Below are positions 1-53,046 of a DNA stretch of 64,000 bases, one piece after another (position 1 is the first letter of the stretch; every line of letters starts with the position of its first letter). The DNA comes from Escherichia phage Av-05. Location: the sequence record KM190144; one strand, given 5' to 3'. The notes below the pieces were generated by a model that was not told where the DNA came from, made no database searches, and was given only the letters and a program-made list of their open reading frames with translations. The translations under genes were made by a program, and so were the position numbers.

Positions 1-2
1 TT

Positions 3-275
3 TTGGAAATAACTTATTTTCATTCCACAATGGATTCAGGAACAAGAAGCTATCAAGCATATTTTGAAGTGACAACCAAAGAACAAGAGGTTGTTAGGAT
101 TGCCTTTATAGGGCAGGATGAGTATTATTATCCAGAAGCTGATGCAGGGACAACAATCCTTTGCGATGATGATGGCTGGATACTTTGGGCTAACAAACTC
201 TATTATCTCATCAATTTCCGTTTGCCTCGTACAGGCGACGCAACTTGGTGGAATAAGTGGGCAACTAATGAATAA
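3..275 (+). CDS. structural protein, C-terminal fragment (gene begins upstream of window)
   Basis: ORF open to window edge; followed by terminator; sits upstream of baseplate/tail-fibre genes. Confidence 0.35.
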   Translation: MEITYFHSTMDSGTRSYQAYFEVTTKEQEVVRIAFIGQDEYYYPEADAGTTILCDDDGWILWANKLYYLINFRLPRTGDATWWNKWATNE

Positions 276-278
276 TGG

Positions 279-306
279 AAAGGGGCATAAGCCCCTTTAT
301 TTGTGT
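279..306 (+). terminator. rho-independent terminator
   Basis: hairpin AGGGGC-ataa-GCCCCT at 281-296 followed by T-rich run. Confidence 0.55.
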
Positions 307-380
307 TTACTATTTATAATTAAGACATATTGTGGTAAAATAACCACATCTTATAATAATTTACAAGAGGAGGCATAATC

Positions 381-695
381 GTGGCTGCTCAATTTGGATT
401 AAATGACTACGGTTTTTCAATTCCGTCCCTTGATGACTTGATAACAGATACCAAGCAATCCCTTATTAGAGCTTTTGGTGAAAACTTTAACACCCAAACT
501 AACTCCGTTGTTGATAAGATCACTACTATTTTCAACGAAAGGGAATATCAATTAATTCTTTTGGCTGCATCTATTTATGCAGCACAAACGTTAGCAGGGG
601 CAGAAGGTATATATCTTGACGAGATTCTTGGTCGTCGTGGGATATTCCGTAGAGGAAAAACCAAAGGGTCCGGTACTGGTTCAAATGGTAATTAA
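381..695 (+). CDS. baseplate wedge-like protein, N-terminal segment (possibly one frameshifted gene with 616-1875)
   Basis: GTG start at 381 preceded by AGAGGAGG; ORF ends 80 nt inside the next ORF, which is in the +1 frame; A-run GAAAAACC at about 654-661. Confidence 0.4.
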   Translation: MAAQFGLNDYGFSIPSLDDLITDTKQSLIRAFGENFNTQTNSVVDKITTIFNEREYQLILLAASIYAAQTLAGAEGIYLDEILGRRGIFRRGKTKGSGTGSNGN

Positions 696-1875
696 TAACA
701 CAGTGCCGTATAATATGATTTATGATGCCGCAACATACAGTATTGACGGTGGGAATTTTGTGTTAACAGAAGATACTGCCGTTGCTGGTAATATCATAGC
801 GCAGCAAATAACCAATCAGGATTGGGTTCTTGGTAACTACACCATCCAGATAGTTAACCAGAATGATGGGACAACAAAGACACTGAACCTATCTCTGAAA
901 AACAAAACCCCAAACAGCACCGAATTAAACTCTTTTATGATGGCTATGAAAGAGTTTATAGTCGATAATACAACTTATCTGAACGAAGATAAGATCTTTA
1001 TCGAATCTTCTTCAGGAAGTATGTTTATAGGTTATGATCAAAATAAGAAAATGATTGGTCTTAATGCTCCTGTTGACTTTAGAACATCACCCCTGCTTGG
1101 TCAAAGAACAATAACCATGGATGTTATTGCTGTTGAAGCAGGAGAAATATCTAGAGAAGCAGAGACAGTTACCAACATAAGCCCGACACCAAGTGGTTTT
1201 GTTAGCTTGACGAACAGGGAAGCATTTAGTGATGGTACAGATGTTGAGACGGATACAGAATATAAGCTGAGGGCTTCGAGCACCACATCAACAGGTGCTG
1301 CCGCAACACGGCCAGCTATTGTTTCTGCTGTTTTAAATGTGCCTGGTGTAAGTAAGGTTAAAATTTTCTCCAACAATACTGGTGTGACAAACGAGTACGG
1401 TGTTCCAGCGTATAAGTTTGAGACAGTAGTCTATGGTGGGGCCACAGAAGATATCAGTAAGGCACTTTATAATACCATAGCACTCTCTAATGCTACTTAT
1501 GGTGATGTATTCTATGATGTGACTACAGAAGATGACCAAGTAGAAAGAATTTATCATAGCAAGGCAAAAGTAAGGCAACTTGAAATTCGTGTCAGATATA
1601 AAGGTAAATTACTATCCCTTACAGAACAGAACACGATCAGGGATTCCCTTAAAGCTGTTGTTGATCCTCTTAACATTGCAGATACGTTGTACAATATCCA
1701 ACTTGTTTCTGCTGTGGGGTCATCCATCTCATCAGGTAGATTTACTCAACTTTTAGTAGATGTCAAAAACAAAGGTGAACCAGACAGTACGTATACTAAT
1801 GATGATATTGTTGCTACTATGACAGAAGTTTTCGCTGTAGAGTTAAATGACATAACTTTCCAGCAAGTTCTTTAA
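616..1875 (+). CDS. baseplate wedge-like protein, C-terminal segment
   Basis: 419-codon ORF; track start is TTG; first ATG (682) lacks a Shine-Dalgarno; position in a baseplate-like gene order. Confidence 0.45.
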   Translation: MTRFLVVVGYSVEEKPKGPVLVQMVINNTVPYNMIYDAATYSIDGGNFVLTEDTAVAGNIIAQQITNQDWVLGNYTIQIVNQNDGTTKTLNLSLKNKTPNSTELNSFMMAMKEFIVDNTTYLNEDKIFIESSSGSMFIGYDQNKKMIGLNAPVDFRTSPLLGQRTITMDVIAVEAGEISREAETVTNISPTPSGFVSLTNREAFSDGTDVETDTEYKLRASSTTSTGAAATRPAIVSAVLNVPGVSKVKIFSNNTGVTNEYGVPAYKFETVVYGGATEDISKALYNTIALSNATYGDVFYDVTTEDDQVERIYHSKAKVRQLEIRVRYKGKLLSLTEQNTIRDSLKAVVDPLNIADTLYNIQLVSAVGSSISSGRFTQLLVDVKNKGEPDSTYTNDDIVATMTEVFAVELNDITFQQVL

Positions 1876-1885
1876 GGATGTTATT

Positions 1886-2563
1886 ATGGCAGACTATTTA
1901 AAAGATGTAAATCATATACACACACTGCCAGATTTCGTTGAGGGAGGTATTGACTATCTCCCTGGTGATTTTCTGAAAGAGAAAAAGAATCTTGTAAAAT
2001 TTCTGACAATATACCTTGAAAGATTGAAAGCTGTTGATGAGATGCTTGTAAAGCTATCAGAAGGTAGATTATTAAGGAATGCCGCAGGGCTGAATCTTGA
2101 TGAGATAGGTAATCAGGTTGGTATTGAGAGAAACGGGCTTGATGATGCCACCTATAGGGCAATAATAATGATCTTGGCTGCTGGATCTGCAAGACACGGT
2201 ACAAGACCAGAGTTTATTGAAACATTAAATCAACTGTTTGGTGTTGGAAATTTTACAACTTACAAAGGGGATAATTACCGTTTTGACGTAAACGTATCGA
2301 AAAGCTGTTTCGACTTAGCAGCAGCGATAGATGAGATACTTGACCTATTACCGTTACCAACGCATCTTAGACTAACAGAGTCTGTGGGTTTGGCGTTTGG
2401 TTTTAAGAATGACAAACATGCACTTGGATTCGGATCTGTGACAGAGAAATCAAGAACTGGTGATGGTGGTTTAGCCCATCTAGTTTACGTACCGGATCCA
2501 CCAAGAACATCGGATGACATCCTTATTTATGTTGACAATATTTCTGTAGATGCTACAGAGTAG
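1886..2563 (+). CDS. baseplate/tail protein
   Basis: 225-aa ORF tightly packed between baseplate-like and fibre-like genes. Confidence 0.4.
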   Translation: MADYLKDVNHIHTLPDFVEGGIDYLPGDFLKEKKNLVKFLTIYLERLKAVDEMLVKLSEGRLLRNAAGLNLDEIGNQVGIERNGLDDATYRAIIMILAAGSARHGTRPEFIETLNQLFGVGNFTTYKGDNYRFDVNVSKSCFDLAAAIDEILDLLPLPTHLRLTESVGLAFGFKNDKHALGFGSVTEKSRTGDGGLAHLVYVPDPPRTSDDILIYVDNISVDATE

Positions 2564-2575
2564 AGGAGACCACAT

Positions 2576-4639
2576 ATGACAGAGGCTATTTTCACAGCCA
2601 GAAGAGAAGATGACTCTGTAGCTGTTAGCTTTGACTATGAAACAATATCAAACACAGCTATTGCTGGAAGAGATTATACACCCAAAGTAGGTACGGCAAC
2701 AATTCCTAAAGGGGAAAAGTCTGTACAGATACCTGTGGAGATAAAACAACATCCTAAAAACTCATTACCAAGAGAATTTACCTTGAAAATGAGTAATCCG
2801 TCTTTTGGTGCAAGGCTAGACAGGCTGGCTTCCAGATGTGTTATTAGCACCAAGGAGGATATGTCTGAGTTGGGGTGGGGAACAAAAGAAGAGAAAATGT
2901 TTCTACCTAAATATTGGACAATTGATTCTCAGCCCACAGAAAGTTGCTCTATAATATCTAATGGTAATATACTTACAGCTTATATGACTAATAGAACTGT
3001 AAGCGGTTTAGCAGGGGTTATTTGGAGCACAAAAGATAAGTATGATCATAAAGGGATCTCTTTTCAAGATCACACAGATCTTCGAAACGCTAAACTGTGG
3101 TTCGATATAGAGTTGGGCGACGGAATGCCTGATTTTAATAATGAGAAATTGACCCCGACATTAACTCTTAAACTTTTAGATGGGGCGACCCATTATATCC
3201 CTCTGTACGCTTATGCTGAAAATATCGGTGAGGATTATAAAAGAGCCACAATCAAACTTGATTTTTCAAATTTAAAATCCGGCCCTGATGTGAACGTGCC
3301 AGTGGATACCTCTCAAGTGGATCAGTTTTTCTTTTCTATGATATCTGAGAAGTATGCAGAAGGAGAAGATGTTGTCCCTAAAGAAAATCAGAACCTTATG
3401 TTGAAAATAACTCTTAAAGAGCCTGATACAGGCTATACAATGATGAGAGTTAATAATTTGACAATTCCTGCACATGATGTGCGTATGTGTACATCCTATG
3501 ATGATATGTATAACCTGACACCTGAACGAGTGGTGGACAACTGCTTGAAACTTGGGTACAGGGATATGATAAACCACTATAATGGTATGTCGCATTATTA
3601 CGAGTTCTCTTGGGAAAGCTCCGCATGGAAACTGAACAAAGATGTCCCTGTCAATAATGCAACCCTACAATGGATGAATAACTATTTCGCACTGACACGA
3701 GCAAATGGTTATAAGGTTATCAATTCTATTAGTTTTGAGTTGATGAGTACTGTATGTCCGGCAGAATGGGTGCAGCATGATTGGAATGATGCATTAGCTG
3801 AAACAGGATACACACCACCAAGTTGGGTATTATCTCCTAATATTAATGAGGGTATGCAATATATCCAAAGTGTGATAAATAAAATAGCAGCCACATGCGA
3901 ACAAGCTAACCAGGTTGTTATCATTCAGATAGGGGAGCCTTGGTGGTGGTATAATACTGCTACAAATTTACCTTGTGTGTATGATTATACTACAAAAGCG
4001 CGTTTTAATGAAGAGACTGGATTGTATGCTCAAGACATGGGGACAATTTATGACTTTAAGACCGGAACACCCTATGATGAGTATGTAGATTTTCTAAGAC
4101 AGTGCTTAGGGGAGCGAGTGGTAAAATTCGGTGCTGATCTTAAAAAATCTTATCCTAATGCAAAAATAACACTTTTACCGTTTTTACCATCCATTATTGG
4201 TAATGGTATTATGGAAAAGATAAATTTCCCTAGTGGTAGTTATACACCTGAGAATTTTGATCTCTATTGCTCCGAGTGCTATGACTGGTTACTCCAAGGG
4301 AAAATGGAAAAATCATTCCAAGCCATCACCATTCCGCGAGATGTCTTAAAATTTAAAGAAGATAAGATACATTATCTGGCAGGATTTGTTCCAGACGAAG
4401 GGCTAGCACCATTATACGGATTTGACCCTAATTCTAATTATAGAGAATATCTTTGGAAAATGATTATAGGGAACATTGTCCTTAATGAGTTTAAGTTTCC
4501 AGGTATTTATCAATACATATGGGCGTATCCACAAGTAATGCATGATTCTATAACAGTGCACAACTCTCAATCCGCAGTCTTTCATATGGGGCATACAGCA
4601 TTGAAAGGGTATTTAAAAGATACCCCACCAGAAGTTTAA
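2576..4639 (+). CDS. tail fibre/tailspike-like protein with Calx-beta-like N-terminal segment
   Basis: 687-aa ORF; N-terminal ...GRDYTP...GEKSVQIPVEI... resembles Calx-beta; large Trp/Tyr-rich C-terminal domain. Confidence 0.4.
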   Translation: MTEAIFTARREDDSVAVSFDYETISNTAIAGRDYTPKVGTATIPKGEKSVQIPVEIKQHPKNSLPREFTLKMSNPSFGARLDRLASRCVISTKEDMSELGWGTKEEKMFLPKYWTIDSQPTESCSIISNGNILTAYMTNRTVSGLAGVIWSTKDKYDHKGISFQDHTDLRNAKLWFDIELGDGMPDFNNEKLTPTLTLKLLDGATHYIPLYAYAENIGEDYKRATIKLDFSNLKSGPDVNVPVDTSQVDQFFFSMISEKYAEGEDVVPKENQNLMLKITLKEPDTGYTMMRVNNLTIPAHDVRMCTSYDDMYNLTPERVVDNCLKLGYRDMINHYNGMSHYYEFSWESSAWKLNKDVPVNNATLQWMNNYFALTRANGYKVINSISFELMSTVCPAEWVQHDWNDALAETGYTPPSWVLSPNINEGMQYIQSVINKIAATCEQANQVVIIQIGEPWWWYNTATNLPCVYDYTTKARFNEETGLYAQDMGTIYDFKTGTPYDEYVDFLRQCLGERVVKFGADLKKSYPNAKITLLPFLPSIIGNGIMEKINFPSGSYTPENFDLYCSECYDWLLQGKMEKSFQAITIPRDVLKFKEDKIHYLAGFVPDEGLAPLYGFDPNSNYREYLWKMIIGNIVLNEFKFPGIYQYIWAYPQVMHDSITVHNSQSAVFHMGHTALKGYLKDTPPEV

Positions 4640-4654
4640 GAAGGAGATACTTTT

Positions 4655-5725
4655 ATGGCTATACCAAGTATACCAATCGAGATTTGGGCAGCGGGAGATG
4701 TAATTCTCCCTAATACTCACGGGGAGAACAAAATAAGACCTATTGACGACCTTTGGTTAAAAGGTTGGGATATGGGAGAAAAACCAGCTTGTGAAGAGTT
4801 TAACTATGTTCTTCATATGATGACAAGTTGGATAAAATATGTTACAGGGGATCAAATTCCTGAATTAGATACAAGATTTTTAAGAAGAAGTGAAAATCTG
4901 TCTGATTTAGCGGATAAGGAAACATCCAGAGTCAACCTTGATGTGTGGAGCAGATCAGAGGCCGACAACCGTTACGTGAATGTAACGGGAGATACAATGA
5001 CAGGAGCTTTGTCATTGCCGAGATTGAATTTTCAACCTTCTGAGACAGATACTGCGTATATCACAACTACAAATCCGGCTTCTGACTGGACGTACTGGGA
5101 TTTTGTTCTTGGAGATAATCCAGGAACAGCAGGGACAAACGGTGTAGATTCTATACGTTTCCGATTCTCTCCTTCAGGTAACTCTGGGATGTTCACTATG
5201 ATGGAGCTTAATGCTATTAGCTCCTCAGCGGCTTTGTGTAAAGTAACAGGAAATGTTGTTGCCACAGGCACTGTACAAGGAACAAATGTTAATGGCACAA
5301 ATGCAACATTCACCACAACAAGAACATCCTCTTTGACGGCTACAGGGCAAATTCAAGGTCAAACTGTTGTAGCAACAAGCTCATTAACAACACCATATGC
5401 AAGGGTTAATGGGGAAGCGAATGTAAATTCACTGGTTGTAAATAATAACTCTGCAAGGGTTGCGGGGAGAAATATCGTAAGATCTGTTAATGGTGTAGGT
5501 GCTGACGGGAATGGTAATGTTAACTTACCAACAGGAAGTGTTCAGCAAATAAGACTTGGTAATCGTTTCTCTGCGGGGGTTGTTGAGTCTACGTTTTATC
5601 CTGGACATGTAATGACTGGCTGGGCATTTGGTAATAAAAAGGAATTGAGAGGTGGTACGTATTACACTGCTCCTTTGCAATATCTTGTGAATGGTCAATG
5701 GGTAACAGTAACAAATTTAAACTAA
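4655..5725 (+). CDS. tail fibre protein
   Basis: GDTMTG motif typical of phage tail fibres; Thr/Asn/Gly-rich beta repeats; followed by Tfa-like gene. Confidence 0.55.
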   Translation: MAIPSIPIEIWAAGDVILPNTHGENKIRPIDDLWLKGWDMGEKPACEEFNYVLHMMTSWIKYVTGDQIPELDTRFLRRSENLSDLADKETSRVNLDVWSRSEADNRYVNVTGDTMTGALSLPRLNFQPSETDTAYITTTNPASDWTYWDFVLGDNPGTAGTNGVDSIRFRFSPSGNSGMFTMMELNAISSSAALCKVTGNVVATGTVQGTNVNGTNATFTTTRTSSLTATGQIQGQTVVATSSLTTPYARVNGEANVNSLVVNNNSARVAGRNIVRSVNGVGADGNGNVNLPTGSVQQIRLGNRFSAGVVESTFYPGHVMTGWAFGNKKELRGGTYYTAPLQYLVNGQWVTVTNLN

Positions 5726-17056: not shown

Positions 17057-17312
17057 AGAAGCGCACTGCTTTAATCAATCCTTCTAAGGTTACAGGTGTG
17101 GTGTATAACGCCTGAATTTCGTAGTTTGGTCTGTCGTTACAATCTTCTTTTGTTGGGACATATTTCCAGTCACCAGTCCACAGATTTCCCTGTTTTACAT
17201 AACGATAGCGCCAAGCAACTGGTTGTTGGGTTGCTGTTTTAAGGCTTGGTGACGAAGGTGGGAGCGAAACATTAGCCATTTCCGAGATGACAGGTTGATA
17301 ACCATTGCTCAT
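16926..17312 (-). CDS. hypothetical protein
   Basis: 128-codon ORF, GC-richer. Confidence 0.3.
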   Translation of the reverse strand: MSNGYQPVISEMANVSLPPSSPSLKTATQQPVAWRYRYVKQGNLWTGDWKYVPTKEDCNDRPNYEIQALYTTPVTLEGLIKAVRFYEQVKRENPPVETGAWKDAVDWVLKEAYNAVNKTTQDLSSYEN

Positions 17313-17487
17313 CTAAATCTCCTCCTGCCTCATATGCCACTTGTAACCAATACATAAATGTTTCAATAGAAACACAACCACAATCCACATCAATCTGGTC
17401 ATGTTGTTGTTCCAACCACTGCTGAAAACGTGATTTTTGAGTGTCATTCTCTGGCTGTTCTTTTATCATTATCACCCCCATCGGCAA
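17272..17487 (-). CDS. hypothetical protein
   Basis: 71-codon ORF. Confidence 0.25.
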   Translation of the reverse strand: MPMGVIMIKEQPENDTQKSRFQQWLEQQHDQIDVDCGCVSIETFMYWLQVAYEAGGDLDEQWLSTCHLGNG

Positions 17488-17551
17488 ACTGAGTACACTG
17501 CAAAGGCTACAGCCATTACAACCCCTACCGTTGTGAATGCTTCAGGCCAAG

Positions 17552-18214
17552 TCATTGATTCATCCCCTTCTTCTTGAGCATGGCGGCACGGCAAGCGTTC
17601 CAGCCATCAACATAATCAAACGTATTACTATCGTCTGGCTCGATTTCATCCGGTACTGCCAATGTCGGCTGGGCGGCAACATTGGCAAAGGCTGCACGCA
17701 ACCCTGTCTTAATTTCCTCTACCTCATCAGCGCCTAGCGATGAATCTGACAGTGCATGATGGAATGCGTATGCCATGTCGTCGTTTACTGTTATCGGTTC
17801 CACTTTCTGTACTGTAAGTGTTGGCGGCACATGATACAACGGGATTACACGACGCGGGTCTGTGCCTTTACCTGGTGGGTACGGCATTATCCAGCCTAAA
17901 CCAATCTGATCAACATCCCGCAACTCCTCTTCGTCCGTCCATCCCACCGGTTCTGCTCTCAACTCCACCTGTGCATTAGGGGAGGTGTAGAGCGGGATTC
18001 CTTTCCTCCCACCAGAAAATTCATTGCGAGCGTTATACTCACGACCATCTGCGTCCTCACACATCCATGCTACAGGCTTTGTCTCCAGCACTGCCAAAGC
18101 AATCCGTGCCAGTTCTTGCGCTTCTTCTGCTGGCAGTACAACGTTGCTACCAAGTCCGTATGTTTCACGCCACTGCTTGATTGTCAGAAGGCGTTCTTTG
18201 GTAAGAATACTCAT
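17552..18214 (-). CDS. hypothetical protein
   Basis: 220-codon ORF, about 50 percent GC. Confidence 0.35.
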   Translation of the reverse strand: MSILTKERLLTIKQWRETYGLGSNVVLPAEEAQELARIALAVLETKPVAWMCEDADGREYNARNEFSGGRKGIPLYTSPNAQVELRAEPVGWTDEEELRDVDQIGLGWIMPYPPGKGTDPRRVIPLYHVPPTLTVQKVEPITVNDDMAYAFHHALSDSSLGADEVEEIKTGLRAAFANVAAQPTLAVPDEIEPDDSNTFDYVDGWNACRAAMLKKKGMNQ

Positions 18215-21433: not shown

Positions 21434-22276
21434 CACTAGTTCAAGGAGTTCGCTACTCTCCCCCGCACCGTTACGTGCATAGCCACAAGATTTCTCCTGT
21501 GGGTCAGACTATATCATAACCCTTTTTCAAGGGTTCCTCCCGTTTGGACCGCGCTTGCTGGCCTACTCTACTCGCTTCTTCACATCAGATGAAGCTGATG
21601 CTATGCTTTCGATAGTCGTTGAACGTCACTTACCAAGTATAGTCTTTAGAGATATGCACCCACAATCTCCGTTGTTTAATTCCTTTTACGGATGGGTAGG
21701 GGTATCCGAGATCTCTAATCTCGCATTGCCTTAGCCCTGACTGTAGCAATTCACAAATCTCTCTCACATCTTTTTCTGTGAGAATGGCATTCGCATTGTT
21801 TTCACCAATAGGTATAACACGTAATCCTGTATCGTAAGCATGTTTTATATTGCTGCCATGTGTCCCCCACTCAAGATTCCACGCTGCGTTATTAAGTTTG
21901 TTTCCATCTTTATGATTAACGCTGGTGAATCTTTCTGGATCTGGATTAGGCACAAAACATTCTGCCACCATCCGATGTATGGCTTTCGTACAGGACTTAC
22001 CGTCTATCCTTATAATTGTACACAGATATCCCCTCCCATTATCAAATACCTGCAAGGGAAGTTTATCTCTTTTTGAAAGAGGCGTGGAACCATCTTCAAA
22101 AACTGTATACCCATGGTAATCTTTTGCTTTTACCATTTTACTATACCTCTTTAAGTTTTCGCTGCGGATTGGCATATTGTCCTTATAACACAATACATTA
22201 TAAGAATCAACTTAGCTTTCCCGACAATTAGAGAGGTTTTCGACATGCATTACTGCATGAAGCCACAATGTTATTT
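21434..22276 (-). mobile_element. group I intron 2 in DNA polymerase gene
   Basis: on sense strand: starts right after exon T, in-frame stop, P-like aattgtcgggaaa, Q-like caatccgcagcg, R-like cgttcaacgactatcg, S-like gatatagtctga, ends in G; boundaries within a few nt. Confidence 0.6.
21630..22136 (-). CDS. intron-encoded HNH homing endonuclease
   Basis: HKDGNKLNNAAWNLEWGTHGSN HNH motif; start at ATG preceded by AAGAGG. Confidence 0.6.
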   Translation of the reverse strand: MVKAKDYHGYTVFEDGSTPLSKRDKLPLQVFDNGRGYLCTIIRIDGKSCTKAIHRMVAECFVPNPDPERFTSVNHKDGNKLNNAAWNLEWGTHGSNIKHAYDTGLRVIPIGENNANAILTEKDVREICELLQSGLRQCEIRDLGYPYPSVKGIKQRRLWVHISKDYTW

Positions 22277-22609
22277 ATGGTAGTAGATAACCCTTCTGAC
22301 ACCCTGGTCGTACCATCCCCGTTTCACCAATTCCCAATGGAACAGGACTCCCATGAGGTCAAACAATGAAGCACCACCGTTTTGTTGGTAAGCATTCAGC
22401 AGAGAATGTTTAGAACGAGTCCAAATTTTACGCCCATCCATACCTGGAATATAGCGTCTCCCATTTGCCTCCCAGAATTTTTCTAACCACTCCCTACGCA
22501 TTTTCAACCCGAAGTTACTATCCCAGAATGCGTCTATTACAGCCTGTGCTCTATTAAGGGGGATACCCAGCATTGCGGCTATCTTAGGAGCTTGTGCTCC
22601 ATACATGAT
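22277..22609 (-). CDS. DNA polymerase, family A, exon 2 of 3
   Basis: IMYGAQ... and GMDGRKIWTRSKHSLLNAYQQNGGASLF align with T7 gp5 motif B region and downstream. Confidence 0.6.
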
Positions 22610-23343
22610 CATATTGTTCAACATGGCTCGCTACACCATGCCCGTCCTTTTAGGAACTGCTACATATTTCTATGCAGATCAGACTATATCTTCATCCTTT
22701 TCAGGATGCCCACCGCTTCGGCAGTCTGAAAGACTGGAGGTTTCCCTCACCGCTTGGCCCTACGCCTTTCGGCTAGTCGTTGAAGTTTCGAATGCTTCCC
22801 AACATTTATGTTCTATTTGATGGCATTTTTTACAAAGTAATTCAAAATTACTTATTTCGTTATTCGTCCTGTCATGGTCAATATGATGAACGCACCATTC
22901 ATCTTTACCTGCATAAAGAAGATCTTTATTACATCTATTACAGTATCTTCTCTGTTCCTTTATGACAGGGGATAACTTACGAAACATCGATATGCCATTT
23001 TTATAAAATTTGGACAATTTCCCACGAGGCTGCCCACCACCTTTTCCTATGCCAACTCTGTCAAGCCTATTTTCTCTTTCGGCCTTTCTGCGTCTATATT
23101 CTCTGGTTTTTATCTTTGAATATTCTCTTCTACAACCTTCAGAGAGACATACTTTTTGATTTTTACCAGTTTTAACACATTGTTCACCGCAGATTATACA
23201 ACAAAATGTGCCCATATTCTCCCTCCTTTTGTAAGAGGGAAGCATTCGCTTACCTGCTGATTATCTTCGACATAACTCGGTCAGATTTCCCAGCAATTCA
23301 ATGGGTGCACCTTACAAATTACTTTGTAAGGGGGCTATCATTA
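22610..23343 (-). mobile_element. group I intron 1 in DNA polymerase gene
   Basis: sense strand begins taa after exon ...ITYG; P-like aattgctgggaaa, Q-like aatcagcagg, R-like cttcaacgactagcc, S-like aagatatagtctga; boundaries within a few nt. Confidence 0.6.
22760..23215 (-). CDS. intron-encoded HNH homing endonuclease
   Basis: Cys-rich N-terminus, CVHHIDHDRTNNEISNFELLCKKCHQIEH HNH motif; ATG with AAAAGGAGGG SD. Confidence 0.65.
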   Translation of the reverse strand: MGTFCCIICGEQCVKTGKNQKVCLSEGCRREYSKIKTREYRRRKAERENRLDRVGIGKGGGQPRGKLSKFYKNGISMFRKLSPVIKEQRRYCNRCNKDLLYAGKDEWCVHHIDHDRTNNEISNFELLCKKCHQIEHKCWEAFETSTTSRKA

Positions 23344-25380
23344 ACCATACGTAATCCCCTTTCCTCCAGAGCGTGTTACCTCCTTTCCTGCTGCTATTGT
23401 GTATGCTCTTGCGTTTCGTTCATGGGCATCCTCTTCCATCATGATACGTAAATACTCACCACCATCAAACTCAAAAGCCCCTGCTGCAGCAATCATACCT
23501 TCTAAGTTAGACCCGTCACAACCCATCAGGTAGTAGCCTTCAGGGACTGTCCAAAGACCCCGCATTTCTTTTCCCAACAAAACCTTCGGATCAGGCTTGG
23601 GCATGTTTGCGCAAACAGTGTGCTTGCACCTGCCCGTGTTAGTGATTCCAGAAAAACGTGCTGGAAGTTTTCCGTCAATGTCTAAACGAGGGTGATTTAA
23701 TAACCCTGTATCCGTCTTGTCCTCATCCATTGGGTCTAAAACAGATCGCCTGTTACGAAGTGATAACCACTTAACAATCTGTTTTGCCATATGCACATCA
23801 ATTTTCTCCAGATTTGGACACAGATGCCCAAAATTATCTTTTAGTTGAGGAGATGTCGGTAACTGGCGTGCCTTACGCCGAAATTTCTTAAATATCTCTG
23901 AATAACCTCTTTCAGATGCATGTCGATGGTCAAACTTACGCTCTGAAATGTTGAATTTCTCATCTGAATCATTAAGGTAGTCAAGAATAAGAGATTTATA
24001 CTCAGACTCAGCCAACTCTTCTATGTACTTCTTAACTAGTACATCAATTTCAGAATCTTCTCTGGCCTTTTTAAATTGATCCTTCGTAACGTCCTTTACA
24101 CGCCACAGTGTAGGTTTCCAACCAGCATCTTTGATCAGATATTTTTTAATGTCATCTTGATTGGAGATTTTCATTGGAACCATTAAATCTGGCATTTTTC
24201 TGTTTCGAAGGTCTTCTTTAGCCTTCTCTAGAAGATCCGGCGGCAAAGGTTCGAGTGTGTTCTCTTTGGTTCGCTGGGAACGAATGAAATTACCGTATAA
24301 AGCCGGATCTTCAATGCCATTCTGGATGCAATATCTCTCCCCTGCTGCACTTACATCCCCATTACTCTTAAAAGCTGTTTTTGGTGGGGCTTTAAACTCT
24401 AGAGCTTCTCTGTTAACAGGATAACCAAGTTTATATTCCAACCAATTCCACCCATGATAAGATATATTACCCGCTGTGTCAAAAGGGTTAGCTGGGAATT
24501 TTGGTTGTTGGGATTTCGTCATCTCTTTTTTTGGAAGAAGTGGTTCTACCTCTTCTTCAATCTCCCGCATCATCTTATCTATGCGGTCTCTTAATTTTTC
24601 TGCCTCCTCTCGATTAAAGTATACACCCTGTATTTCTTGCTCTATCATCAAATAGTCTGTGAGCATTCTCCTACGTAATGCATTTTTCCAATTAATCTGG
24701 TGCATCCCGTGAGGTTTATCAGCATACATGAACTGCTTGTCATCAGGCCATCGCGTACCATTTGACTCGTCAATAAGAGCTTTCCACACAAGTTCGTTAA
24801 TGATAACGTCTTCCCACACACGGTTTACATATTCCCACAATGGTTGATTACGCCAATCATCAATCTGTACTTTCTTGTTTGCCACACGATAACCCCATGC
24901 CAATAAGCCGTGTGGCCCAACCCTATCACGTTTTCCTGTTACAGGGTTTAATACAGAGTCTGGGCAGCCATTAGGCAATGGGCGATCTGGGTAAAGAACA
25001 CGACTCATTGAAAGAGTGTCGTAAAGATTTACCTGTTTATTACCTATCGTCCCCATACATTTTGGGTCTTTGAACATATCATATTCAATCCCAGAAAGTT
25101 TTTTCCACAGACGTAAATCATAGCCAAACAGGTTATGTATTGCTATCCCTCTTGGTTCGGTCTGTAACCAAGAGTAAAAATCATCATAAGAAAGGATTCG
25201 TAAATTAACACCTTCTTTGCTGCGTGCAAAATTAACTGCACTCTGGTATTCCTTGTGAGCAGGATCGAGAAACAACACCCAGTTATTTACAGCATATTCT
25301 TTAAAAAGTGTGCAGTGATATTTAGTTGCCTCTTCTAATAATCCGTCAGCCTCTGTATCGGCTAAAAAAAGTCCTTTCAT
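23344..25380 (-). CDS. DNA polymerase, family A, exon 1 of 3 (3'-5' exonuclease plus N-terminal polymerase part)
   Basis: MKGLFLADTEADGLLEEATKYHC resembles T7 gp5 N-terminus (exo motif I); ends KGITYG at motif B; start at ATG with TAGGAGGAG SD. Confidence 0.65.
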
Positions 25381-25575: not shown

Positions 25576-27576
25576 TCAAAATGGAGAATCGCTATCTAAA
25601 TCTTCAGGTTGCTCAATCACAACAGCAGGTTCTTGTTGAGGAACAGAAACAGCAATTTTCCCCACAGGTGTTTCAAGTTCCAGACTTTGAATCATTGATT
25701 TAGGTCTTAGCATTACCTCCCCATTAAGTTTAAACATACCATCTTCCCACACCCAACCAGATGCATCAGAAAACTGACCATTATCATCCATAATCAGAGT
25801 ATCCGCTATGCCTAATTTTTTGTGTGGACGGTTTTTCAAAACAACACTACGAATACGCCCACGAGATCGGTCAGGGAGTTCTTCAGGCTCGACACCTAAG
25901 ACAACCCACGATAACTGTTCGAGTGCTGCACTTCCCCTTAAAGATTCTTTTCTCACCGGATACCAGAAAGGTAACAAATTACCTTCTTTATCTTTCGGAA
26001 TTTGTATATCAACACGCTTCATATGACTGATACTGAGGATAAACACGTCATATTTTTTGCAGAAGGCAGCCAATTCCGTCATGATGTTATCTAAATCTCT
26101 TCTCTCGTTATCAGATTTTAATCCTGATATCACCATCGACAAGTGATCTAAAATAATCCACCTACACCCGTCAAGGAAAACCATCTGTTTCAATTTTTGT
26201 AGTAATTGGTCAGTCGGTATTGAACCAAAGTGATCAAAAATTTTAACCTTATCTTCGGCAATCCACCGTTGGTGTATAGCTAAGTGCTGCTCATCGGTAA
26301 GAAATTGCTCTGGATCTGCAACAAATGCTTTCGGGTCAATTTTTAACTCCTCAGCATATAGACTGTTTACAGACTCCTCTTCATCCTCCTCTAGACGGAT
26401 AATTGCAATTTTCTCGTTCTCTTTCCAACCGTCCAGTCGGGGAATATCCATGTTACGGAGGTACTCGATAATTGCATACTCAATCTTTCTTGAGAAAGTT
26501 GATTTCCCAGCTCCAGATGGGCCTGTCAGTGTCCACAATTCTCCTGTTCGTGGGCCTCTTGTTAGTTCATACAAACGAGGAAAGCACGGCAACGGAACGC
26601 CATCTTTTTTCTTTTTACGGAGATTTTCAATAGATATTCTCTCCAACCCAATCAATTTGTCTGGAACATATTTATCCTGCGCTTTAGCAAACATGTTCCA
26701 GATATCCATCCACTTACCTTTTTTGTAAATATCCCGGATATCTTTAACACCATTTGGGTCATTGCGTTCATTTGGGTATCGTGCAACGTAGATATTGTCA
26801 GACAGTAAAAAACCTGCGACATCATCTGTAGCTTCCTTGCCTTTCTTAATTCTGTGTTCTTTTTCCCTTGCTGTGGCTTCATCATTGTCTAAACCAAGGA
26901 CAATCTTTTCATATTCCCTGATAAACTTTTCGTTGTGGGCAAATGTATCTACCGCATTGGCTGTTCCACAGTTCAACCCGATAAAAGGTAATGTCGGGCA
27001 ATTAGAAACCTCCTCACCATCCTGAATGGCTTTGATACCTTTTAAAGCATTGTTTGCCCACTCACGTACTGAACGTGACGTATTAGGATTACTATGAAGA
27101 AATTTAATATACTCAAACCCAGCTTGCCAGCCAGCCGTTACATCGCCTTCCCCCTCAACAATAAAGATCTGTTTTTTACCAGATCCCATAGAGGCCTCAT
27201 GTTGACCAAAAAATTGAGAGGAAGCCTTTACTGTGCCAACAACAGAGAAATGCCCCTTTTTCTCTTTCGGAACAGTCCAGTCTCGTTTCTTGTACCCTGT
27301 CAATTTCCCATATTTGTCATAATATGGAAGATATGTTGCCACTACTGTAGTACCGTCTTTCAAATCTGTTGCAGATCTGATCTTGAAGTACTTAGCTGCA
27401 TCTAAACTAATATCCATTTGGGGGACAGCCAAGATCCTTGTACTATCCAGGACAGACTCTACAGTTTCTTCTTCTTTTTTCTGATAATTCACTTTACCAC
27501 CACTTTTTGTAGGTCGGAATGCTTTTGGGTTCTCACCTTCAAAGTATGCACCAGCCCCCCATTTTGTAATCTTCAT
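25576..27576 (-). CDS. primase-helicase (T7 gp4-like)
   Basis: Walker A GPSGAGKST, Walker B-like WIILDH, acidic C-terminal tail ...DSDSPF. Confidence 0.6.
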   Translation of the reverse strand: MKITKWGAGAYFEGENPKAFRPTKSGGKVNYQKKEEETVESVLDSTRILAVPQMDISLDAAKYFKIRSATDLKDGTTVVATYLPYYDKYGKLTGYKKRDWTVPKEKKGHFSVVGTVKASSQFFGQHEASMGSGKKQIFIVEGEGDVTAGWQAGFEYIKFLHSNPNTSRSVREWANNALKGIKAIQDGEEVSNCPTLPFIGLNCGTANAVDTFAHNEKFIREYEKIVLGLDNDEATAREKEHRIKKGKEATDDVAGFLLSDNIYVARYPNERNDPNGVKDIRDIYKKGKWMDIWNMFAKAQDKYVPDKLIGLERISIENLRKKKKDGVPLPCFPRLYELTRGPRTGELWTLTGPSGAGKSTFSRKIEYAIIEYLRNMDIPRLDGWKENEKIAIIRLEEDEEESVNSLYAEELKIDPKAFVADPEQFLTDEQHLAIHQRWIAEDKVKIFDHFGSIPTDQLLQKLKQMVFLDGCRWIILDHLSMVISGLKSDNERRDLDNIMTELAAFCKKYDVFILSISHMKRVDIQIPKDKEGNLLPFWYPVRKESLRGSAALEQLSWVVLGVEPEELPDRSRGRIRSVVLKNRPHKKLGIADTLIMDDNGQFSDASGWVWEDGMFKLNGEVMLRPKSMIQSLELETPVGKIAVSVPQQEPAVVIEQPEDLDSDSPF

Positions 27577-29006: not shown

Positions 29007-29472
29007 ACTCCCCCAACTCTTGTTTTAACTCAATATTTTCTTTTAACAGGGCATTCACAAAAGCTAATATGTGAACAAGAGAACTCTGACAACCATTAGC
29101 ATATAGTTCAGCTTCTACACGCTTTTTCAATTTCGCACCATAACCGTCTAAGTTGTCGAGATGCTCTTTAATTTTATCATAAGCATCTCGTTTTCCTCTT
29201 AGCTCATTAATAATGTACAGAACATTATCTGGGCTTGCGGTGGCAATGTAACTGGCATCGTAGTCATTTTGCCAGTGAGATAAATTCCCAGTTCCCTCAT
29301 GTCTCTTTGCCGGACCCATTTTAGGATCTGTGATGAAAACAGTTTTTACCTCCTTATCATCCTGAAAGGATACCATCGAATGTCCATGGCTATCTATCCA
29401 CCAGTGCCCTCTGGTGGCTTTCTTTGCCAGTTTCTCAATATCTCCGATTAAGATATCAGCTTTTGTCTGCAT
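28999..29472 (-). CDS. hypothetical protein (Ea22-like?)
   Basis: 157 aa; ATRGHWWIDSHGH N-terminal motif and C-terminal coiled coil. Confidence 0.3.
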   Translation of the reverse strand: MQTKADILIGDIEKLAKKATRGHWWIDSHGHSMVSFQDDKEVKTVFITDPKMGPAKRHEGTGNLSHWQNDYDASYIATASPDNVLYIINELRGKRDAYDKIKEHLDNLDGYGAKLKKRVEAELYANGCQSSLVHILAFVNALLKENIELKQELGEYE

Positions 29473-29725
29473 TGATATCCTCCTTCTTCAAGACTAAACT
29501 TGCTCTTGAGATCTCAGAAGAAACATACTCTATGTGACTAATCACATATGTCGTTACTTCGCTTCCATCGCCAAAAATATTATCAAGATCTACGATAACA
29601 AGATCACCATTCTCCGGTTTTTCTACATCATCGGATAAGATAATCACAGCTTCTGCAACCTCCCCAGATTGGTTGAGACGCAGTGTAATATCATGACCAT
29701 TACCCCTATACTCAGTAAAATCCAA
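29456..29725 (-). CDS. hypothetical protein
   Basis: 89-codon ORF. Confidence 0.3.
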   Translation of the reverse strand: MDFTEYRGNGHDITLRLNQSGEVAEAVIILSDDVEKPENGDLVIVDLDNIFGDGSEVTTYVISHIEYVSSEISRASLVLKKEDINADKS

Positions 29726-29938
29726 AACCTTTTTCTGCTTTTTGGTGTGGTGGGAAAAACCACTTAAAGAGCTTCTTCAACATGCATTCGCTCCTTAATT
29801 TCATTTAGGATGTCTTCGTATCGCTGCCACGACTCTTCGGCAGACAACTTTGCTTCGAGAAAGTTGTCTCGTGCAACATCTCGTAATTTCAACAATTTTT
29901 CAGTTGAAACTTGACTCAAATCTGTAAAGTCTTCGACT

Positions 29939-45825: not shown

Positions 45826-45928
45826 AATTTAACCACACAGGGAGGCTAACGCACGTAGTCTCCCATATGTCCCCATTTCAGGGACTATGTTATAGTAGTC
45901 CTAACAAAACAACAAAATGGAACCTAAA

Positions 45929-46192
45929 ATGAAAACTTTCAACGAATTCATCTCAGAATCGTCTGGTGTGAAAATTAACAAAGCGGTCAATCAGGTTATT
46001 GCTGATATTCTTAATTTGTATAACATTGACTTAACTCCGCATATCACGCTTGGTAACAAACGAAACTTTTTCATATTTAACACATCCGAACTTGACGAAA
46101 ATCAGTTCAATAACATTCAACGTTTTGCGAATGATAAAGGTCTTCGACATGAGCCTGGTGGCTATAAAAAATACGCAATATATTTGAAATAA
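45929..46192 (+). CDS. internal-protein-like small protein
   Basis: N-terminus MKTFNEFISES resembles the T4 internal protein capsid-targeting sequence. Confidence 0.4.
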   Translation: MKTFNEFISESSGVKINKAVNQVIADILNLYNIDLTPHITLGNKRNFFIFNTSELDENQFNNIQRFANDKGLRHEPGGYKKYAIYLK

Positions 46193-46252
46193 AGGTATAC
46201 AAGCCTATAGGACTATGTTATAGTAGTCCTATTAAAACATGAGGAGAATATT

Positions 46253-46558
46253 ATGAAATTAGGCGAAACCAACCGAATTGGTCTTTTTACAATATTTGCA
46301 TCACCTTTTTACGCAGCTCTTTCTGTTGCAGTATTACAAAAGGCTTACGATATGGATGGTGTTCCTGGTTTTGTATTCTTATCACCATTTTTATTATTCG
46401 TCGGGGCTTTGTTATTATATGCCACGACTAGTTTTGACCATAACGTCTGGGTTAATTATAAATGTAAATTGTCTGAAGAAGAACATGCAGAAGCTCGTAA
46501 AAAAGCTATTGAATCTACCAATCTAGAAAATTTCATTAAAGAATGCCGAGGAAAATAA
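46253..46558 (+). CDS. membrane protein
   Basis: hydrophobic helices. Confidence 0.3.
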   Translation: MKLGETNRIGLFTIFASPFYAALSVAVLQKAYDMDGVPGFVFLSPFLLFVGALLLYATTSFDHNVWVNYKCKLSEEEHAEARKKAIESTNLENFIKECRGK

Positions 46559-46559
46559 T

Positions 46560-47246
46560 ATGAATAGTTCTAAAGTGTTTAATAGTCAAGCTCGTGCAGT
46601 AGGTGGTTTTGCTCATAACGTACAAAATGACCAAATCAAAAATGAACCAATGTTCTTTAACTGTGATTTGAGTTTTGCTTGGGATAACGGTGGTCCAATT
46701 ACTCGTAGCTTTATCCAAAATCTCCCTGACGATTGGAAAGGCTCGGATGTAGTATTTGATTCACGAGTCCACATGCTGATGCCTGGTTGGTATCCTGCTA
46801 TTCCTGGATATCACCATGATGATGTTCCTCGCCCTGATATTCCAGTCGGCCAACACTTTATTACTGCAGGACAACCTGACTATGATAACCCTCGTTACCA
46901 TTCTGAACATATTCTTGGTCTTGTTAACGCTGATGTGTGTCCTACTCATTTTGCAACAGGAACTGCAGAGTTCAGTCAGATTCCTGATGGCGAACTTATC
47001 TATCGCCAGTGGCACAAAGAAGTCCTCGAAAAAATTGAAAAAGGTGAACTAGAGAAATGGGAAGCTCCGGACCGTACTCTTCTTCAGTTTGATTGGCAAA
47101 CATGGCACACTGGTTCTCGTGCAATTAGTAATGGATGGCGTTGGTTCGGACGTGTATCTCGTAATACAGACCGAGTTAAAAAGATTACTAATGAAATTCG
47201 TGTCAATGCTCAAGTTTATCTGGAATTCCCTATGGAAGGCTGGTAA
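46560..47246 (+). CDS. hypothetical protein
   Basis: 228-codon ORF, His/Asp/Trp-rich. Confidence 0.35.
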   Translation: MNSSKVFNSQARAVGGFAHNVQNDQIKNEPMFFNCDLSFAWDNGGPITRSFIQNLPDDWKGSDVVFDSRVHMLMPGWYPAIPGYHHDDVPRPDIPVGQHFITAGQPDYDNPRYHSEHILGLVNADVCPTHFATGTAEFSQIPDGELIYRQWHKEVLEKIEKGELEKWEAPDRTLLQFDWQTWHTGSRAISNGWRWFGRVSRNTDRVKKITNEIRVNAQVYLEFPMEGW

Positions 47247-47737
47247 TGATTAACAAAACATATTGGTCTAATATAGACGACGGTAATGAAGGTATTTCGT
47301 ACTATTCAGTAGATTGGACAGGATGTCCATCCTACTTAGTGAAACGTATTTGTCAAGAATTTAAAATCGACCAGCCAGCAGGTATTATCGTGAACAGATA
47401 CATTAATGGATATCAACCTATCGATGAAGTAATACGAACAACTCAAGCTGAGCTTGAAAAGTTTTTCAATAAGTGCCAATGGATAACAGGATGGATTATA
47501 TTTGTACCGTCGGTATGGTTTTTTAGTACTAAAGTAAGTGCCTTTGCCATACCAGATATTATCGCTATATTATTAGCATCTACTATCGTAAGTATTATTG
47601 GTGGTATTATTGGTGGAGGTACTATAGGCATCATTATTAATCTTGTTAAAAGTAGTTTACAGGAACGTAAAGACAAGATAAAGGCCAAGAATAATGAAGT
47701 TGAACGTTTTATTACCGAATGCAGGAATTTGAGATGA
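47246..47737 (+). CDS. membrane protein
   Basis: hydrophobic segment with GG(I/T)IG repeats. Confidence 0.3.
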   Translation: MINKTYWSNIDDGNEGISYYSVDWTGCPSYLVKRICQEFKIDQPAGIIVNRYINGYQPIDEVIRTTQAELEKFFNKCQWITGWIIFVPSVWFFSTKVSAFAIPDIIAILLASTIVSIIGGIIGGGTIGIIINLVKSSLQERKDKIKAKNNEVERFITECRNLR

Positions 47738-47970
47738 GTATAGCAATTTACATTAAATCAGAATCATGTGATAGTTATCTGTACACATATGATAAAGATG
47801 TGTCAGAAGAAAAAATCAAAGACGATCTTAATATGGACCTTGATATGTTCTGTCCTATTGCAGATTACAAACTTGCGGTTTCTAATAGTGAAAGTCCATC
47901 TAAAGAAACGCGCATTGAAGAATTTATGTCCGAATTAATGGCCAAATCATGGGACCGAGATGATGAGTAA
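47719..47970 (+). CDS. hypothetical protein
   Basis: 83-codon ORF. Confidence 0.3.
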   Translation: MQEFEMSIAIYIKSESCDSYLYTYDKDVSEEKIKDDLNMDLDMFCPIADYKLAVSNSESPSKETRIEEFMSELMAKSWDRDDE

Positions 47971-48418
47971 GAAAAATAAAGTGAAAGAACTATCAGCCGG
48001 TATTATCTTCATGACAAAAGATAAAGAGTTATTCATGGGCCGTGTAACTGGTTCTCGTCCTAAAGGTGCATTAGCTCATCGGTGGGATATTCCTAAAGGC
48101 CGTGTCGAGCCAGGTGAATCTCCTATTGAAGCCGCTATTCGTGAATGCGAAGAAGAAACTGGGTTTACACAATATGACCCTGCCTTCCTGAAAGACCTAG
48201 GCGAACATCATTACTCAGACAATAAGAATATTCATCTATTCCAATATACCATCCCTGTAGAGCACGAGCAATTCAGAAACAGTGTTTGTAATTCCTATCA
48301 TACATTCCCAGACGGACGACAGATTCCTGAATTTGATGCATTCGCTTTAATTAAACCTTCTCAATGGGAATATGTAATGGGCAAATCATTATATAAGGTG
48401 CTCACTACCATCCTATAA
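47960..48418 (+). CDS. nudE: Nudix hydrolase
   Basis: Nudix box GRVEPGESPIEAAIRECEEETG; immediately upstream of e as in T4. Confidence 0.6.
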   Translation: MMSKKNKVKELSAGIIFMTKDKELFMGRVTGSRPKGALAHRWDIPKGRVEPGESPIEAAIRECEEETGFTQYDPAFLKDLGEHHYSDNKNIHLFQYTIPVEHEQFRNSVCNSYHTFPDGRQIPEFDAFALIKPSQWEYVMGKSLYKVLTTIL

Positions 48419-48425
48419 GTAATAA

Positions 48426-48451
48426 ATACCTCCTATAAACGTAGGAGGTAT
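48426..48451 (+). promoter_or_regulatory. SD-sequestering hairpin with late-promoter-like TATAAACG in the loop
   Basis: perfect inverted repeat ATACCTCCTA/TAGGAGGTAT; 3' arm is the ribosome-binding site of e. Confidence 0.5.
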
Positions 48452-48452
48452 T

Positions 48453-48941
48453 ATGAATATATTTGAAATGCTTCGTAATGACGAAGGTCTTAGACTGACT
48501 TTATACAAAGACACCGAAGGCTTTTGGACGATTGGCATAGGCCATTTAGTAACAAAGAACCCGTCTTTAGCCGTAGCTAAAGCTGAACTTGACAGAATGA
48601 TCGGTCGTAAATGCAACGGTACAATTACCCTTGATGAGGCTGAAAAGCTATTTAATGAAGACGTCGATAAAGCCGTTCGCGGAATCTTGGGTAATGCTAA
48701 ACTTAAACCGGTATATGATTCTTTAGATGCGGTTCGTCGATGTGCATTGGTCAATATGGTCTTTCAAATGGGTGTAGCAGGCGTTGCTGGTTTTACTAAT
48801 TCTCTTCGTATGCTTCAACAGAAACGTTGGGATGAAGCGGCAGTAAATCTAGCCCAATCTAAATGGTATCGTCAGACACCTAATCGCGCGAAACGCGTAA
48901 TCTCAACATTTAAAACAGGAACTTGGAAAGCGTATATATGA
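48453..48941 (+). CDS. e: T4-type lysozyme (endolysin)
   Basis: about 80 percent identical by eye to T4 lysozyme (MNIFEMLR...EGLRL...YKDTEG...TIGIGHL...). Confidence 0.9.
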
Positions 48942-49219
48942 AAACATACAGTGAATTTTTATCAGAATCTATTCTTAACGAAGCTACTGACACATTTGCA
49001 ACTAAGCTAGGTGCAGCTTTAGTTGAAGCTGAAAGTCTATTAGCACGTATTTCTGAACTTGCCAGTAAGATAGATACTCGCAAATTTGAGCGCACCAGTG
49101 ATATCGTTAAGCTTGAAGCACTGCTGCGTATGTGCGATAAACCGGAAGAAATCGCTAAGAACGGCTCGTTAATGAAACAACGTCTTGAAAAATATATTTC
49201 AGGCGCTTCAGAAAAATAG
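48938..49219 (+). CDS. internal-protein-like protein
   Basis: N-terminus [11 protein letters not shown]; ATG overlaps the e stop (ATGA). Confidence 0.5.
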
Positions 49220-49220
49220 T

Positions 49221-49250
49221 GTTTACTTCCTCCAAGGGTTTTGATACTAT
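49221..49250 (+). promoter_or_regulatory. T4-early-type promoter
   Basis: -35 GTTTAC, 17-18 nt spacer, -10 TACTAT; spacer is inverted-repeat partner of the denV SD. Confidence 0.5.
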
Positions 49251-49277
49251 ACATCTATCAACTACTTGGAGGAAATT

Positions 49278-49691
49278 ATGACTCGTATCAATTTAACACT
49301 TGTTTCTGAACTGACCGACCAACATCTTATGGCTGAGTATCGTGAATTACCTCGTGTATTCGGTGCAGTCCGTAAACATGTTCAAAATGGTAAACGTGTA
49401 AAAGATTTTAAAATCTCTCCAACATTTATTTTAGGCACGGGCCACGTAACATTCTTTTACGACAAACTCGAATTTTTACGTTTACGTCAAATCGAGCTAA
49501 TAGCTGAATGTTTGAAACGTGGTTTCAAAATCAAGGACACGACAGTCCAGGATATTTCCGACATTCCTGTAGAATTTCGTAATAATTATGTCCCGTCCGA
49601 AGCGTCCATTGCGATAAGTCAAGCACGCTTAGATGAAAAAATTGCTCAACGTCCCACTTGGTACAAATACTATGGTAAATCAATTTACTAA
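49278..49691 (+). CDS. denV: endonuclease V (pyrimidine-dimer glycosylase)
   Basis: near-identical by eye to T4 endonuclease V ([12 protein letters not shown]...[16 protein letters not shown]...). Confidence 0.9.
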
Positions 49692-49697
49692 GGAAAA

Positions 49698-49958
49698 ATG
49701 AAAATGTATCAAGAATTTATCACTGAAGCGGATGCCAAAGACCCCAAATTTAAAGTTAAAGCTTTCATTGGTGATGCGGAAGACTTTGGCTCATTAAAAC
49801 GTAATGGGTATTCTTTCTTAGGTGGCGATGGTAAAGAAATCAACACCTATGCAAAACGTAGTGAAATTGCTTATGTTGTAGCAAGTCCTAAAGTAGATGC
49901 TGATGATATTGGATACGATTTTAACAACTTCGGAATTATTTCTGGCGGTAAAGCTTAA
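49698..49958 (+). CDS. internal-protein-like protein
   Basis: N-terminus MKMYQEFITEA. Confidence 0.5.
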   Translation: MKMYQEFITEADAKDPKFKVKAFIGDAEDFGSLKRNGYSFLGGDGKEINTYAKRSEIAYVVASPKVDADDIGYDFNNFGIISGGKA

Positions 49959-49961
49959 ATT

Positions 49962-49991
49962 GTTTACGCTTAAGTATTAATATGGTATAAT
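49962..49991 (+). promoter_or_regulatory. T4-early-type promoter
   Basis: -35 GTTTAC, about 18 nt spacer, -10 TATAAT. Confidence 0.45.
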
Positions 49992-50021
49992 TACTCTATC
50001 AAAACAAACAAGGAAACAAAA

Positions 50022-50600: not shown

Positions 50601-50629
50601 TAAGGCCTATTTACATTTAAAGGAAACAT

Positions 50630-51978: not shown

Positions 51979-51984
51979 GGTTAT

Positions 51985-53042: not shown

Positions 53043-53046
53043 AGTA

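Follow-up and report, generated by a model that had tools for sequence, protein, structure and literature searches.

An interrupted gene at the left end of the window

We analyzed a window of 64,000 nucleotides, the whole stretch under study, from the sequence record of Escherichia phage Av-05 (KM190144). Near its left end two open reading frames (ORFs) overlap in different frames. The first, ORF 381-695, opens with the GTG at 381-383 and closes with the TAA at 693-695, as read from the sequence, and its start is preceded by a Shine-Dalgarno element (Table 1), bearing out the original prediction that this start is a strong one. It terminates, as also foreseen there, inside the second frame, ORF 616-1875, which opens with TTG and lies in the +1 frame relative to the first (616-381 = 235 = 3x78+1). 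The +1 frame is open from position 595, and hence the two frames overlap across 595-695. The TTG at 616 has only a weak GAAGG upstream of it, and no Shine-Dalgarno element is present in the sequence ahead of the ATG at 685; the downstream ORF is thus without a convincing start of its own, in keeping with the same prediction.

The split is already on view in the public annotation of Av-05, in the form of two adjacent coding sequences (CDSs). The 104-aa product of the first frame is an exact protein match to AII27639.1/YP_009111170.1 and the 396-aa product read from the ATG at 685 is one to AII27640.1/YP_009111171.1, both of Av-05, and a neighboring 225-aa product likewise matches an Av-05 protein exactly. 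An exact contig look-up for the 104-aa product found no entry. Upstream, ORF 3-275 corresponds to the C-terminus of a 175-aa protein of the relatives with a Sheath_initiator domain (PF10934; gp25-like), and downstream, ORF 1886-2563 matches DUF2612 (gpI/DUF2612-like). The resulting gene order, namely gp25-like sheath initiator, wedge gene, DUF2612 protein and then the tail-fiber module, is that of the relatives.

Table 1. Coordinates of features in the window
Feature	Position	Strand	Evidence or remark
Shine-Dalgarno element AGAGGAGG	366..373	+	7-nt spacer to GTG 381; identical GTG start annotated in relatives
Codons 1-99 of the wedge gene, frame 0	381..677	+	100% aa identity to TH18 residues 1-99; PHROG 6 positions 61-154
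A5 run, not the site of the shift	656..660	+	GGAAAAACC unchanged in frame-intact 18-1-2
38-nt quasi-palindrome CGGTACTG...CAGTGCCG, enclosing the extra base	671..708	+	Predicted RNA fold; inverted in Logan contig L004
GG, a single G in every relative; frame-breaking base	678..679	+	Sole gap in alignments to six relatives
Codons 100-497 and stop, +1 frame	679..1875	+	TH18 identity; dN/dS; Pfam; PHROG 6 positions 188-407
ATG chosen in the Av-05 record to start the 396-aa 'baseplate wedge subunit' CDS	685..687	+	Internal Met 102 in orthologues
Premature TAA, frame 0, product of the extra base	693..695	+	Translation; 104-aa product
Small hypothetical gene	~29459-29783	-	108 aa in 8/8 members of the TH18 cluster
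Major capsid	57827-58834	-	Head module
Portal-like	61011-62549	-	Head module
TerL, C-terminal part	62568-63350	-	Head module
TerL, N-terminal part	63451-63852	+	Strand opposite to the C-terminal part

The two frames correspond to a single baseplate wedge protein

The Pfam Baseplate_J profile (PF04865) is recovered by the 419-aa part of the protein with 38.9 bits against a cut-off of 21.1 (E 7.8e-10). An intact orthologue matches positions 61-407 of the PHROG 6 profile, 'baseplate wedge subunit', in one stretch (E 2e-49), and the N-terminal (E 5e-15) and C-terminal (E 6e-28) pieces from Av-05 match consecutive parts of this very profile (Table 1), which marks them as belonging to one gene. Among the NCBIfam profiles there was no match for any form of the wedge protein. 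For comparison with homologues of solved structure we used the reconstructed 497-aa protein, with G678 removed: its residues 1-496 align with residues 1-493 of the 'Wedge 2 protein' 9cuy_T (494 aa; E 9.2e-172), and residues 3-494 are collinear with Phi92_gp145 (495 aa; E 3.2e-59), both of which were solved as single chains.

At the DNA level the region is 96.6% identical to Escherichia phages 18-1-2, 19-1-2, 24-2-1 and vB_EcoM_TH18 (hereafter TH18) and about 74% identical to the group of PVP-SE1 and SSE121, all of which are Vequintavirinae. Phages 18-1-2, TH18 and PVP-SE1 each carry the gene as one CDS of 1494 nt (497 aa) with the same GTG start, and the product of PVP-SE1, gp48, is annotated as 'baseplate wedge subunit'. 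The Vequintavirinae orthologues (PVP-SE1 gp48, rV5 gp036, TH18 UOX40070.1 and WP_115447806.1) share this GTG with Av-05, as well as the count of 497 codons once the extra G of Av-05 is removed; the Av-05 protein is 97.5-99.6% identical to those of the TH18 family and of contigs from E. coli assemblies, and 79% identical to those of the PVP-SE1 group. Whereas these orthologues are single 1494-nt CDSs, the Av-05 span 381-1875 measures 1495 nt and is annotated as two. The downstream stretch shows 97.5% amino acid identity to TH18 over a 405-residue aligned stretch, and codons 100-497 differ from those of TH18 by 45 synonymous and 6 non-synonymous changes (dN/dS 0.035), with no further stops, indicating that the +1 frame is still under strong purifying selection and has been kept coding.

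A wider search with the reconstructed 497-aa protein recovered 106 homologue clusters, 104 of which are uninterrupted proteins of 486-500 aa aligned at 99-100% coverage, down to 31% identity. The first of the two short clusters is a 274-aa product on a contig of 1,574 nt, probably cut by the contig end. The second comes from Salmonella phage SPLA5a, whose annotation gives a protein of 396 aa beginning at the internal Met also used in Av-05. We considered SPLA5a as a second instance of a gene split at this place and rejected it: the ORF is intact in OR413583.1 (1201-2694), with 497 codons from the GTG, and the 396 aa reflect a choice of start codon during annotation. Twelve further 497-aa variants of the 90%-identity cluster are also intact, one of them (P0126) on at least 24 contigs.

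These comparisons bear on the arrangement that the GenBank/RefSeq annotation implies, that of two separate genes for a small N-terminal baseplate component and a wedge subunit. It can point to the separate annotation of the two in the Av-05 record and to the annotation of the 396-aa protein from the same Met in SPLA5a. Against this, the short SPLA5a protein sits in an intact frame, all other orthologues are fused, and the two Av-05 products align to successive segments of a single profile as well as to a single solved chain, making two genes hardly credible. Orthologs with two independent genes, the finding which the original prediction had named as speaking against its reading, were looked for with the opposite outcome: the orthologues, SPLA5a included, are single genes. 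Its proposal of one baseplate gene laid out in two frames is upheld in that the orthologues are single proteins and the pieces fit one profile.

The single-gene identity of the locus is thus directly apparent, and on sequence grounds we assign 381-1875 to one gene predicted to encode a baseplate wedge protein of about 497 aa, of the T4 gp6/Mu gp47/P2 J family, in the Vequintavirinae phage Av-05. After removal of the G it is collinear with the Baseplate_J family (PF04865, PHROG 6; 9cuy_T, Phi92 gp145) and lies in the same neighborhood; it differs from this family in that, in the Av-05 record only, an inserted nucleotide breaks the ORF after codon 99. Members of the wedge family are expected to occupy one ORF, which is uninterrupted in all relatives examined, and the failure of the window to show such an ORF is attributed by us to one extra base in the Av-05 record.

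The frame is broken by one extra G downstream of the A-run

In alignments the window reads ACTGGTTC, as against ACT-GTTC in 18-1-2 and ACT-ATCC in PVP-SE1; in other words, ACTGGTT stands in the window where relatives of the 18-1-2 type have ACTGTT. Relative to six independent sequences at 96.3-98.5% nucleotide identity (phage 18-1-2, one contig from Logan, and a further four from ENA or Logan), the gene has no gap other than the extra base at G678/G679, which is also the only gap across window positions 1-5544 aligned to TH18. Both the exact position of the base and its absence from all relatives examined are directly evident from these alignments. Pattern scans of the IMG/VR viral contigs for the site with and without the extra base matched neither version and are uninformative.

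The frame switch had originally been placed beside an A-run, GAAAAACC, at about 654-661. This motif does exist, one base further on, at 655-662, but it is not where the frame changes: in the alignments the extra base lies 18 nt 3' of the run. The site reads GGGAAAACC in a contig from Logan ERR7123791 and GGTAAAACC in PVP-SE1, both of which are frame-intact and differ from the window by substitution without an indel. In a protein alignment of 23 sequences reaching down to 31% identity, frame 0 past the A-run still encodes the conserved R-R-G-K-T-K-x-x-G, with the conserved K-T-K-G-S-G following the run and G98 (672-674) invariant in the 23 orthologues, while the +1 frame encodes a nearly invariant V-P-Y from residue 108. 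Conserved residues thus flank the site on both sides and confine the change of coding frame to about 675-700, which fits an extra base at 678/679. Slippage on the A-run at 656-660 was accordingly discarded as a candidate, as the run is unchanged in the intact 18-1-2 and conserved frame-0 residues follow it.

Programmed frameshifting

In a programmed +1 frameshift, ribosomes would pass from ORF 381-695 into the +1 frame, either at the A-run or closer to the stop, and so make the full-length wedge protein. In favor of this, an essential gene shows two overlapping frames of which the first alone has a good start, and a hairpin can form over 671-708 according to the predicted fold. Programmed frameshifts are conserved among relatives; however, two frames are seen in 0/6 close relatives and 0/104 full-length homologue clusters. 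A shift at the A-run would replace the conserved K-T-K-G-S-G, including the invariant G98, and the run itself varies by substitution in intact relatives. The conserved residues instead require a shift within 675-681 (ACU-GGU-U), where inspection shows that neither the move from ACU to CUG nor that from GGU to GUU allows re-pairing of the P-site tRNA; at the stop, the move from AAU-UAA to AUU renders re-pairing impossible as well. By inspection, no slippery codon is present either at 675-681, where the frame must change, or at the 0-frame stop, and PVP-SE1 does not share the arms of the hairpin. The layout recalls the +1 frameshifting of prfB (RF2) only superficially, through a 0-frame stop inside a +1-frame ORF; unlike prfB, the Av-05 gene lacks a slippery codon of the CUU-U type, offers no re-pairing where the shift would be needed, and shares its arrangement with no relative. 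Judged by these features, we would not place the Av-05 wedge gene in any class of programmed frameshifting, and we give this mechanism next to no credence.

A quasi-palindrome around the extra base

The extra base lies within a quasi-palindrome (Table 1), whose predicted RNA fold has an energy of -13.1 kcal/mol when the extra G is present and of -11.8 kcal/mol when it is removed. A function for this element is unlikely given that its arms are not conserved in PVP-SE1. Template switching at the quasi-palindrome was examined as a source of the G and rejected by sequence reasoning, the product expected being ACTGTGTT and the one observed ACTGGTT.

A separate observation concerns the Logan contig SRR14663239_1575 (L004), where positions ~1728-1765 correspond to window 671-708. 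Here the segment GGTACTGT...ACAGTGCC is exactly inverted, a 35-nt inversion which creates an in-frame stop and a product ending in ...GSGTVLLITI; the contig end is a foldback. This inversion is either an artefact of the library or assembly, or a hairpin-mediated inversion hot spot at the place where the extra G of Av-05 sits. The cluster member of 105 aa (P0003), which might have been taken for a second truncation, stems from a Logan contig with a 35-nt inversion of the quasi-palindrome and a foldback at its end, and is regarded by us as an artefact or minor variant resulting from a different event.

Further anomalies of the Av-05 record

The genome announcement describes Av-05 as assembled de novo with Geneious from 36-base GAIIx reads into 120,938 bp with '97% identity with RB69'; the relatives have genomes of 134-148 kb as against this length. 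Within Vequintavirinae sequence the window holds a T4-like block (Tevenvirinae, Mosigvirus) at 45882-57169, with genes for thymidine kinase, internal head proteins, lysozyme, endoribonuclease and endonuclease V, and with its right junction on an A10 run. The part at 46206-57169 (10.96 kb) is 100.0% identical to the T4-like phage phiC120, which was isolated and studied in the same laboratory as Av-05 (LANIIA/CIAD, Sinaloa, Mexico; shared authors Amarillas and Leon-Felix). This T4-like block of about 11 kb was earlier read as a probable horizontal transfer (PMC5885020). We consider cross-contamination or chimeric assembly more likely than horizontal transfer in view of the perfect identity to a phage from the same laboratory, and hence the Av-05 record is probably chimeric.

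The head module at 57169-63434 is inverted relative to the baseplate and tail-fiber genes, whereas in TH18 all of these lie on one strand. The large terminase gene (TerL) switches strand, and is broken, at a near-perfect palindrome of 48 nt (63401-63448); the window lacks the HNH homing endonuclease by which TerL is split in TH18. The TH18 segment 108000-133882, tried as a counterpart of window 46-64 kb, gave no match, this stretch being made up of the T4-like block and the inverted head module.

A second isolated 1-nt insertion of G, absent from TH18, is found at 29723, where the coding strand reads GGTTTTGGATTTT as against GTTTTT-GATTTT. Codons 1-18 (MLKKLFKWFFPPHQKAEK) of a small hypothetical gene thereby come to lie in a different frame from the remainder of its sequence (DFTEYRGNGHD...). 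These anomalies are directly visible in the record.

Several observations on other genes of the window, all on the minus strand, may be added. The primase/helicase gene at 25579-27576 is without a 307-aa segment found in TH18 (TH18 residues 551-857), which suggests an intein or homing-endonuclease insertion in TH18. The DNA polymerase at 22253-25380 is encoded, as in TH18, by two pieces (679 aa and 123 aa) that flank a 151-aa ORF; at this place an HNH endonuclease is annotated in related Klebsiella phages, and the gene looks to have been divided by a mobile element. Genes named EaA-like and Ea22-like in TH18 occupy ~17275-18214; numerous matches of this region are to Stx-converting lambdoid phages, content not usually met in a lytic genome of the Vequintavirinae.

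Origin of the extra base

We posit, at a probability of roughly 0.8, that the extra G is an assembly or sequencing artefact and not a real biological feature. One spurious G at 678/679 would move codons 100-497 to the +1 frame and create the premature TAA at 693-695, giving rise to the two CDSs of 104 aa and 396 aa in the record. Such a base would most likely have arisen in the de novo assembly of the 36-nt Illumina GAIIx reads, and the real phage would then encode a normal 497-aa protein by conventional translation from the GTG at 381. The step from these observations to an artefact, as opposed to a real mutation, is one that we infer from several lines of evidence. The base difference occurs in one record only, in a gene otherwise under purifying selection, and the same record contains independent assembly faults in the form of the chimeric block, the inversion and the second 1-nt insertion. 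Av-05 was grown as a lytic phage that forms plaques, and in contractile-tail baseplates one would expect the wedge protein to be essential. In all this the case resembles artefacts of early short-read phage assemblies, which likewise present an isolated 1-base length difference in a single record, within an otherwise perfectly conserved gene expected to be essential; in the Av-05 record it stands alongside the chimeric block, the inversion and the second frameshift.

Two considerations weigh on the other side. Indels are rare in Illumina chemistry and the sequencing coverage of Av-05 was very deep, so that an insertion in the consensus calls for a fault of the assembler or of consensus building and not of base-calling. 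Further, only two frame-breaking indels were found in the 71 Av-05 CDSs compared with TH18, and the record is therefore not one full of small errors. The scarcity of Illumina indel errors also lends some weight to a real, unprogrammed insertion in the Av-05 stock that was sequenced. A mutant of this kind could be a passenger in the lysate, sustained through complementation by wild-type genomes; alternatively, the 104-aa and 396-aa fragments could assemble non-covalently, the second of them made by ribosomes reinitiating at ATG 685, shortly before TAA 693, or enough full-length protein might come from rare spontaneous frameshifts. The deposited sequence does have the base, the ATG at 685-687 overlaps the end of the upstream ORF in a coupling-like arrangement (ATGGTAATTAA), and the location inside a quasi-palindrome, for which an independent Logan contig displays the 35-nt inversion, could be mutation-prone. 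Yet the insertion is absent from every other contig and genome examined, and with a downstream dN/dS of 0.035 and no secondary damage the mutation could only be of extremely recent origin. All orthologues and solved structures have the wedge protein as a single chain, the ATG at 685 has no Shine-Dalgarno element before it, template switching would have given ACTGTGTT in place of ACTGGTT, and several other assembly faults mar the record. Taken together, a real insertion appears unlikely, though its probability is not negligible.

Within that scenario, a real G in a viable phage would mean either that the wedge is built of two non-covalent fragments (1-104, and 102-497 by termination-reinitiation at ATGGTAATTAA) or that unprogrammed +1 shifting takes place at a low level. 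Were the insertion real, the stop-start arrangement formed by ATG 685 and TAA 693 could in principle permit coupled translation of the two fragments; nevertheless, we regard such a viable phage as very improbable. If true, it would be a natural experiment showing that a gp6/J-like wedge tolerates a split after its N-terminal segment of about 100 residues.

The products predicted are distinct. A protein of ~54 kDa containing ...GSGTVQMVINNTVPYNMIYDAATY..., with GSGTVQMVINN across the site, would be expected of an intact gene, or of frameshifting should the G prove real, whereas a real split should yield proteins of ~11 and ~43 kDa, the former with a ...GSGTGSNGN end. As to the three options initially offered, namely a programmed +1 shift, a homopolymer error or a real disruption, a 1-nt length error or mutation is retained, while the A-run as its site and the programmed shift are not.

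Conclusions

We trace the apparent overlap of two frames in the Av-05 baseplate region to one extra G within a gene that is a single ORF in its relatives. The frameshift itself is of little weight, being likely a database error to be corrected: YP_009111170.1 and YP_009111171.1 should either be merged into a single baseplate wedge protein of 497 aa or carry a frameshift flag. Nevertheless, Av-05 is what we take to be the founding genome of the genus Avunavirus, and by virtue of this status its errors can spread; the 396-aa start in SPLA5a may be an annotation error propagated from the Av-05 record. Beyond the wedge gene, a chimeric Av-05 record affects the taxonomic and gene-flow analyses that have been built on this genome.
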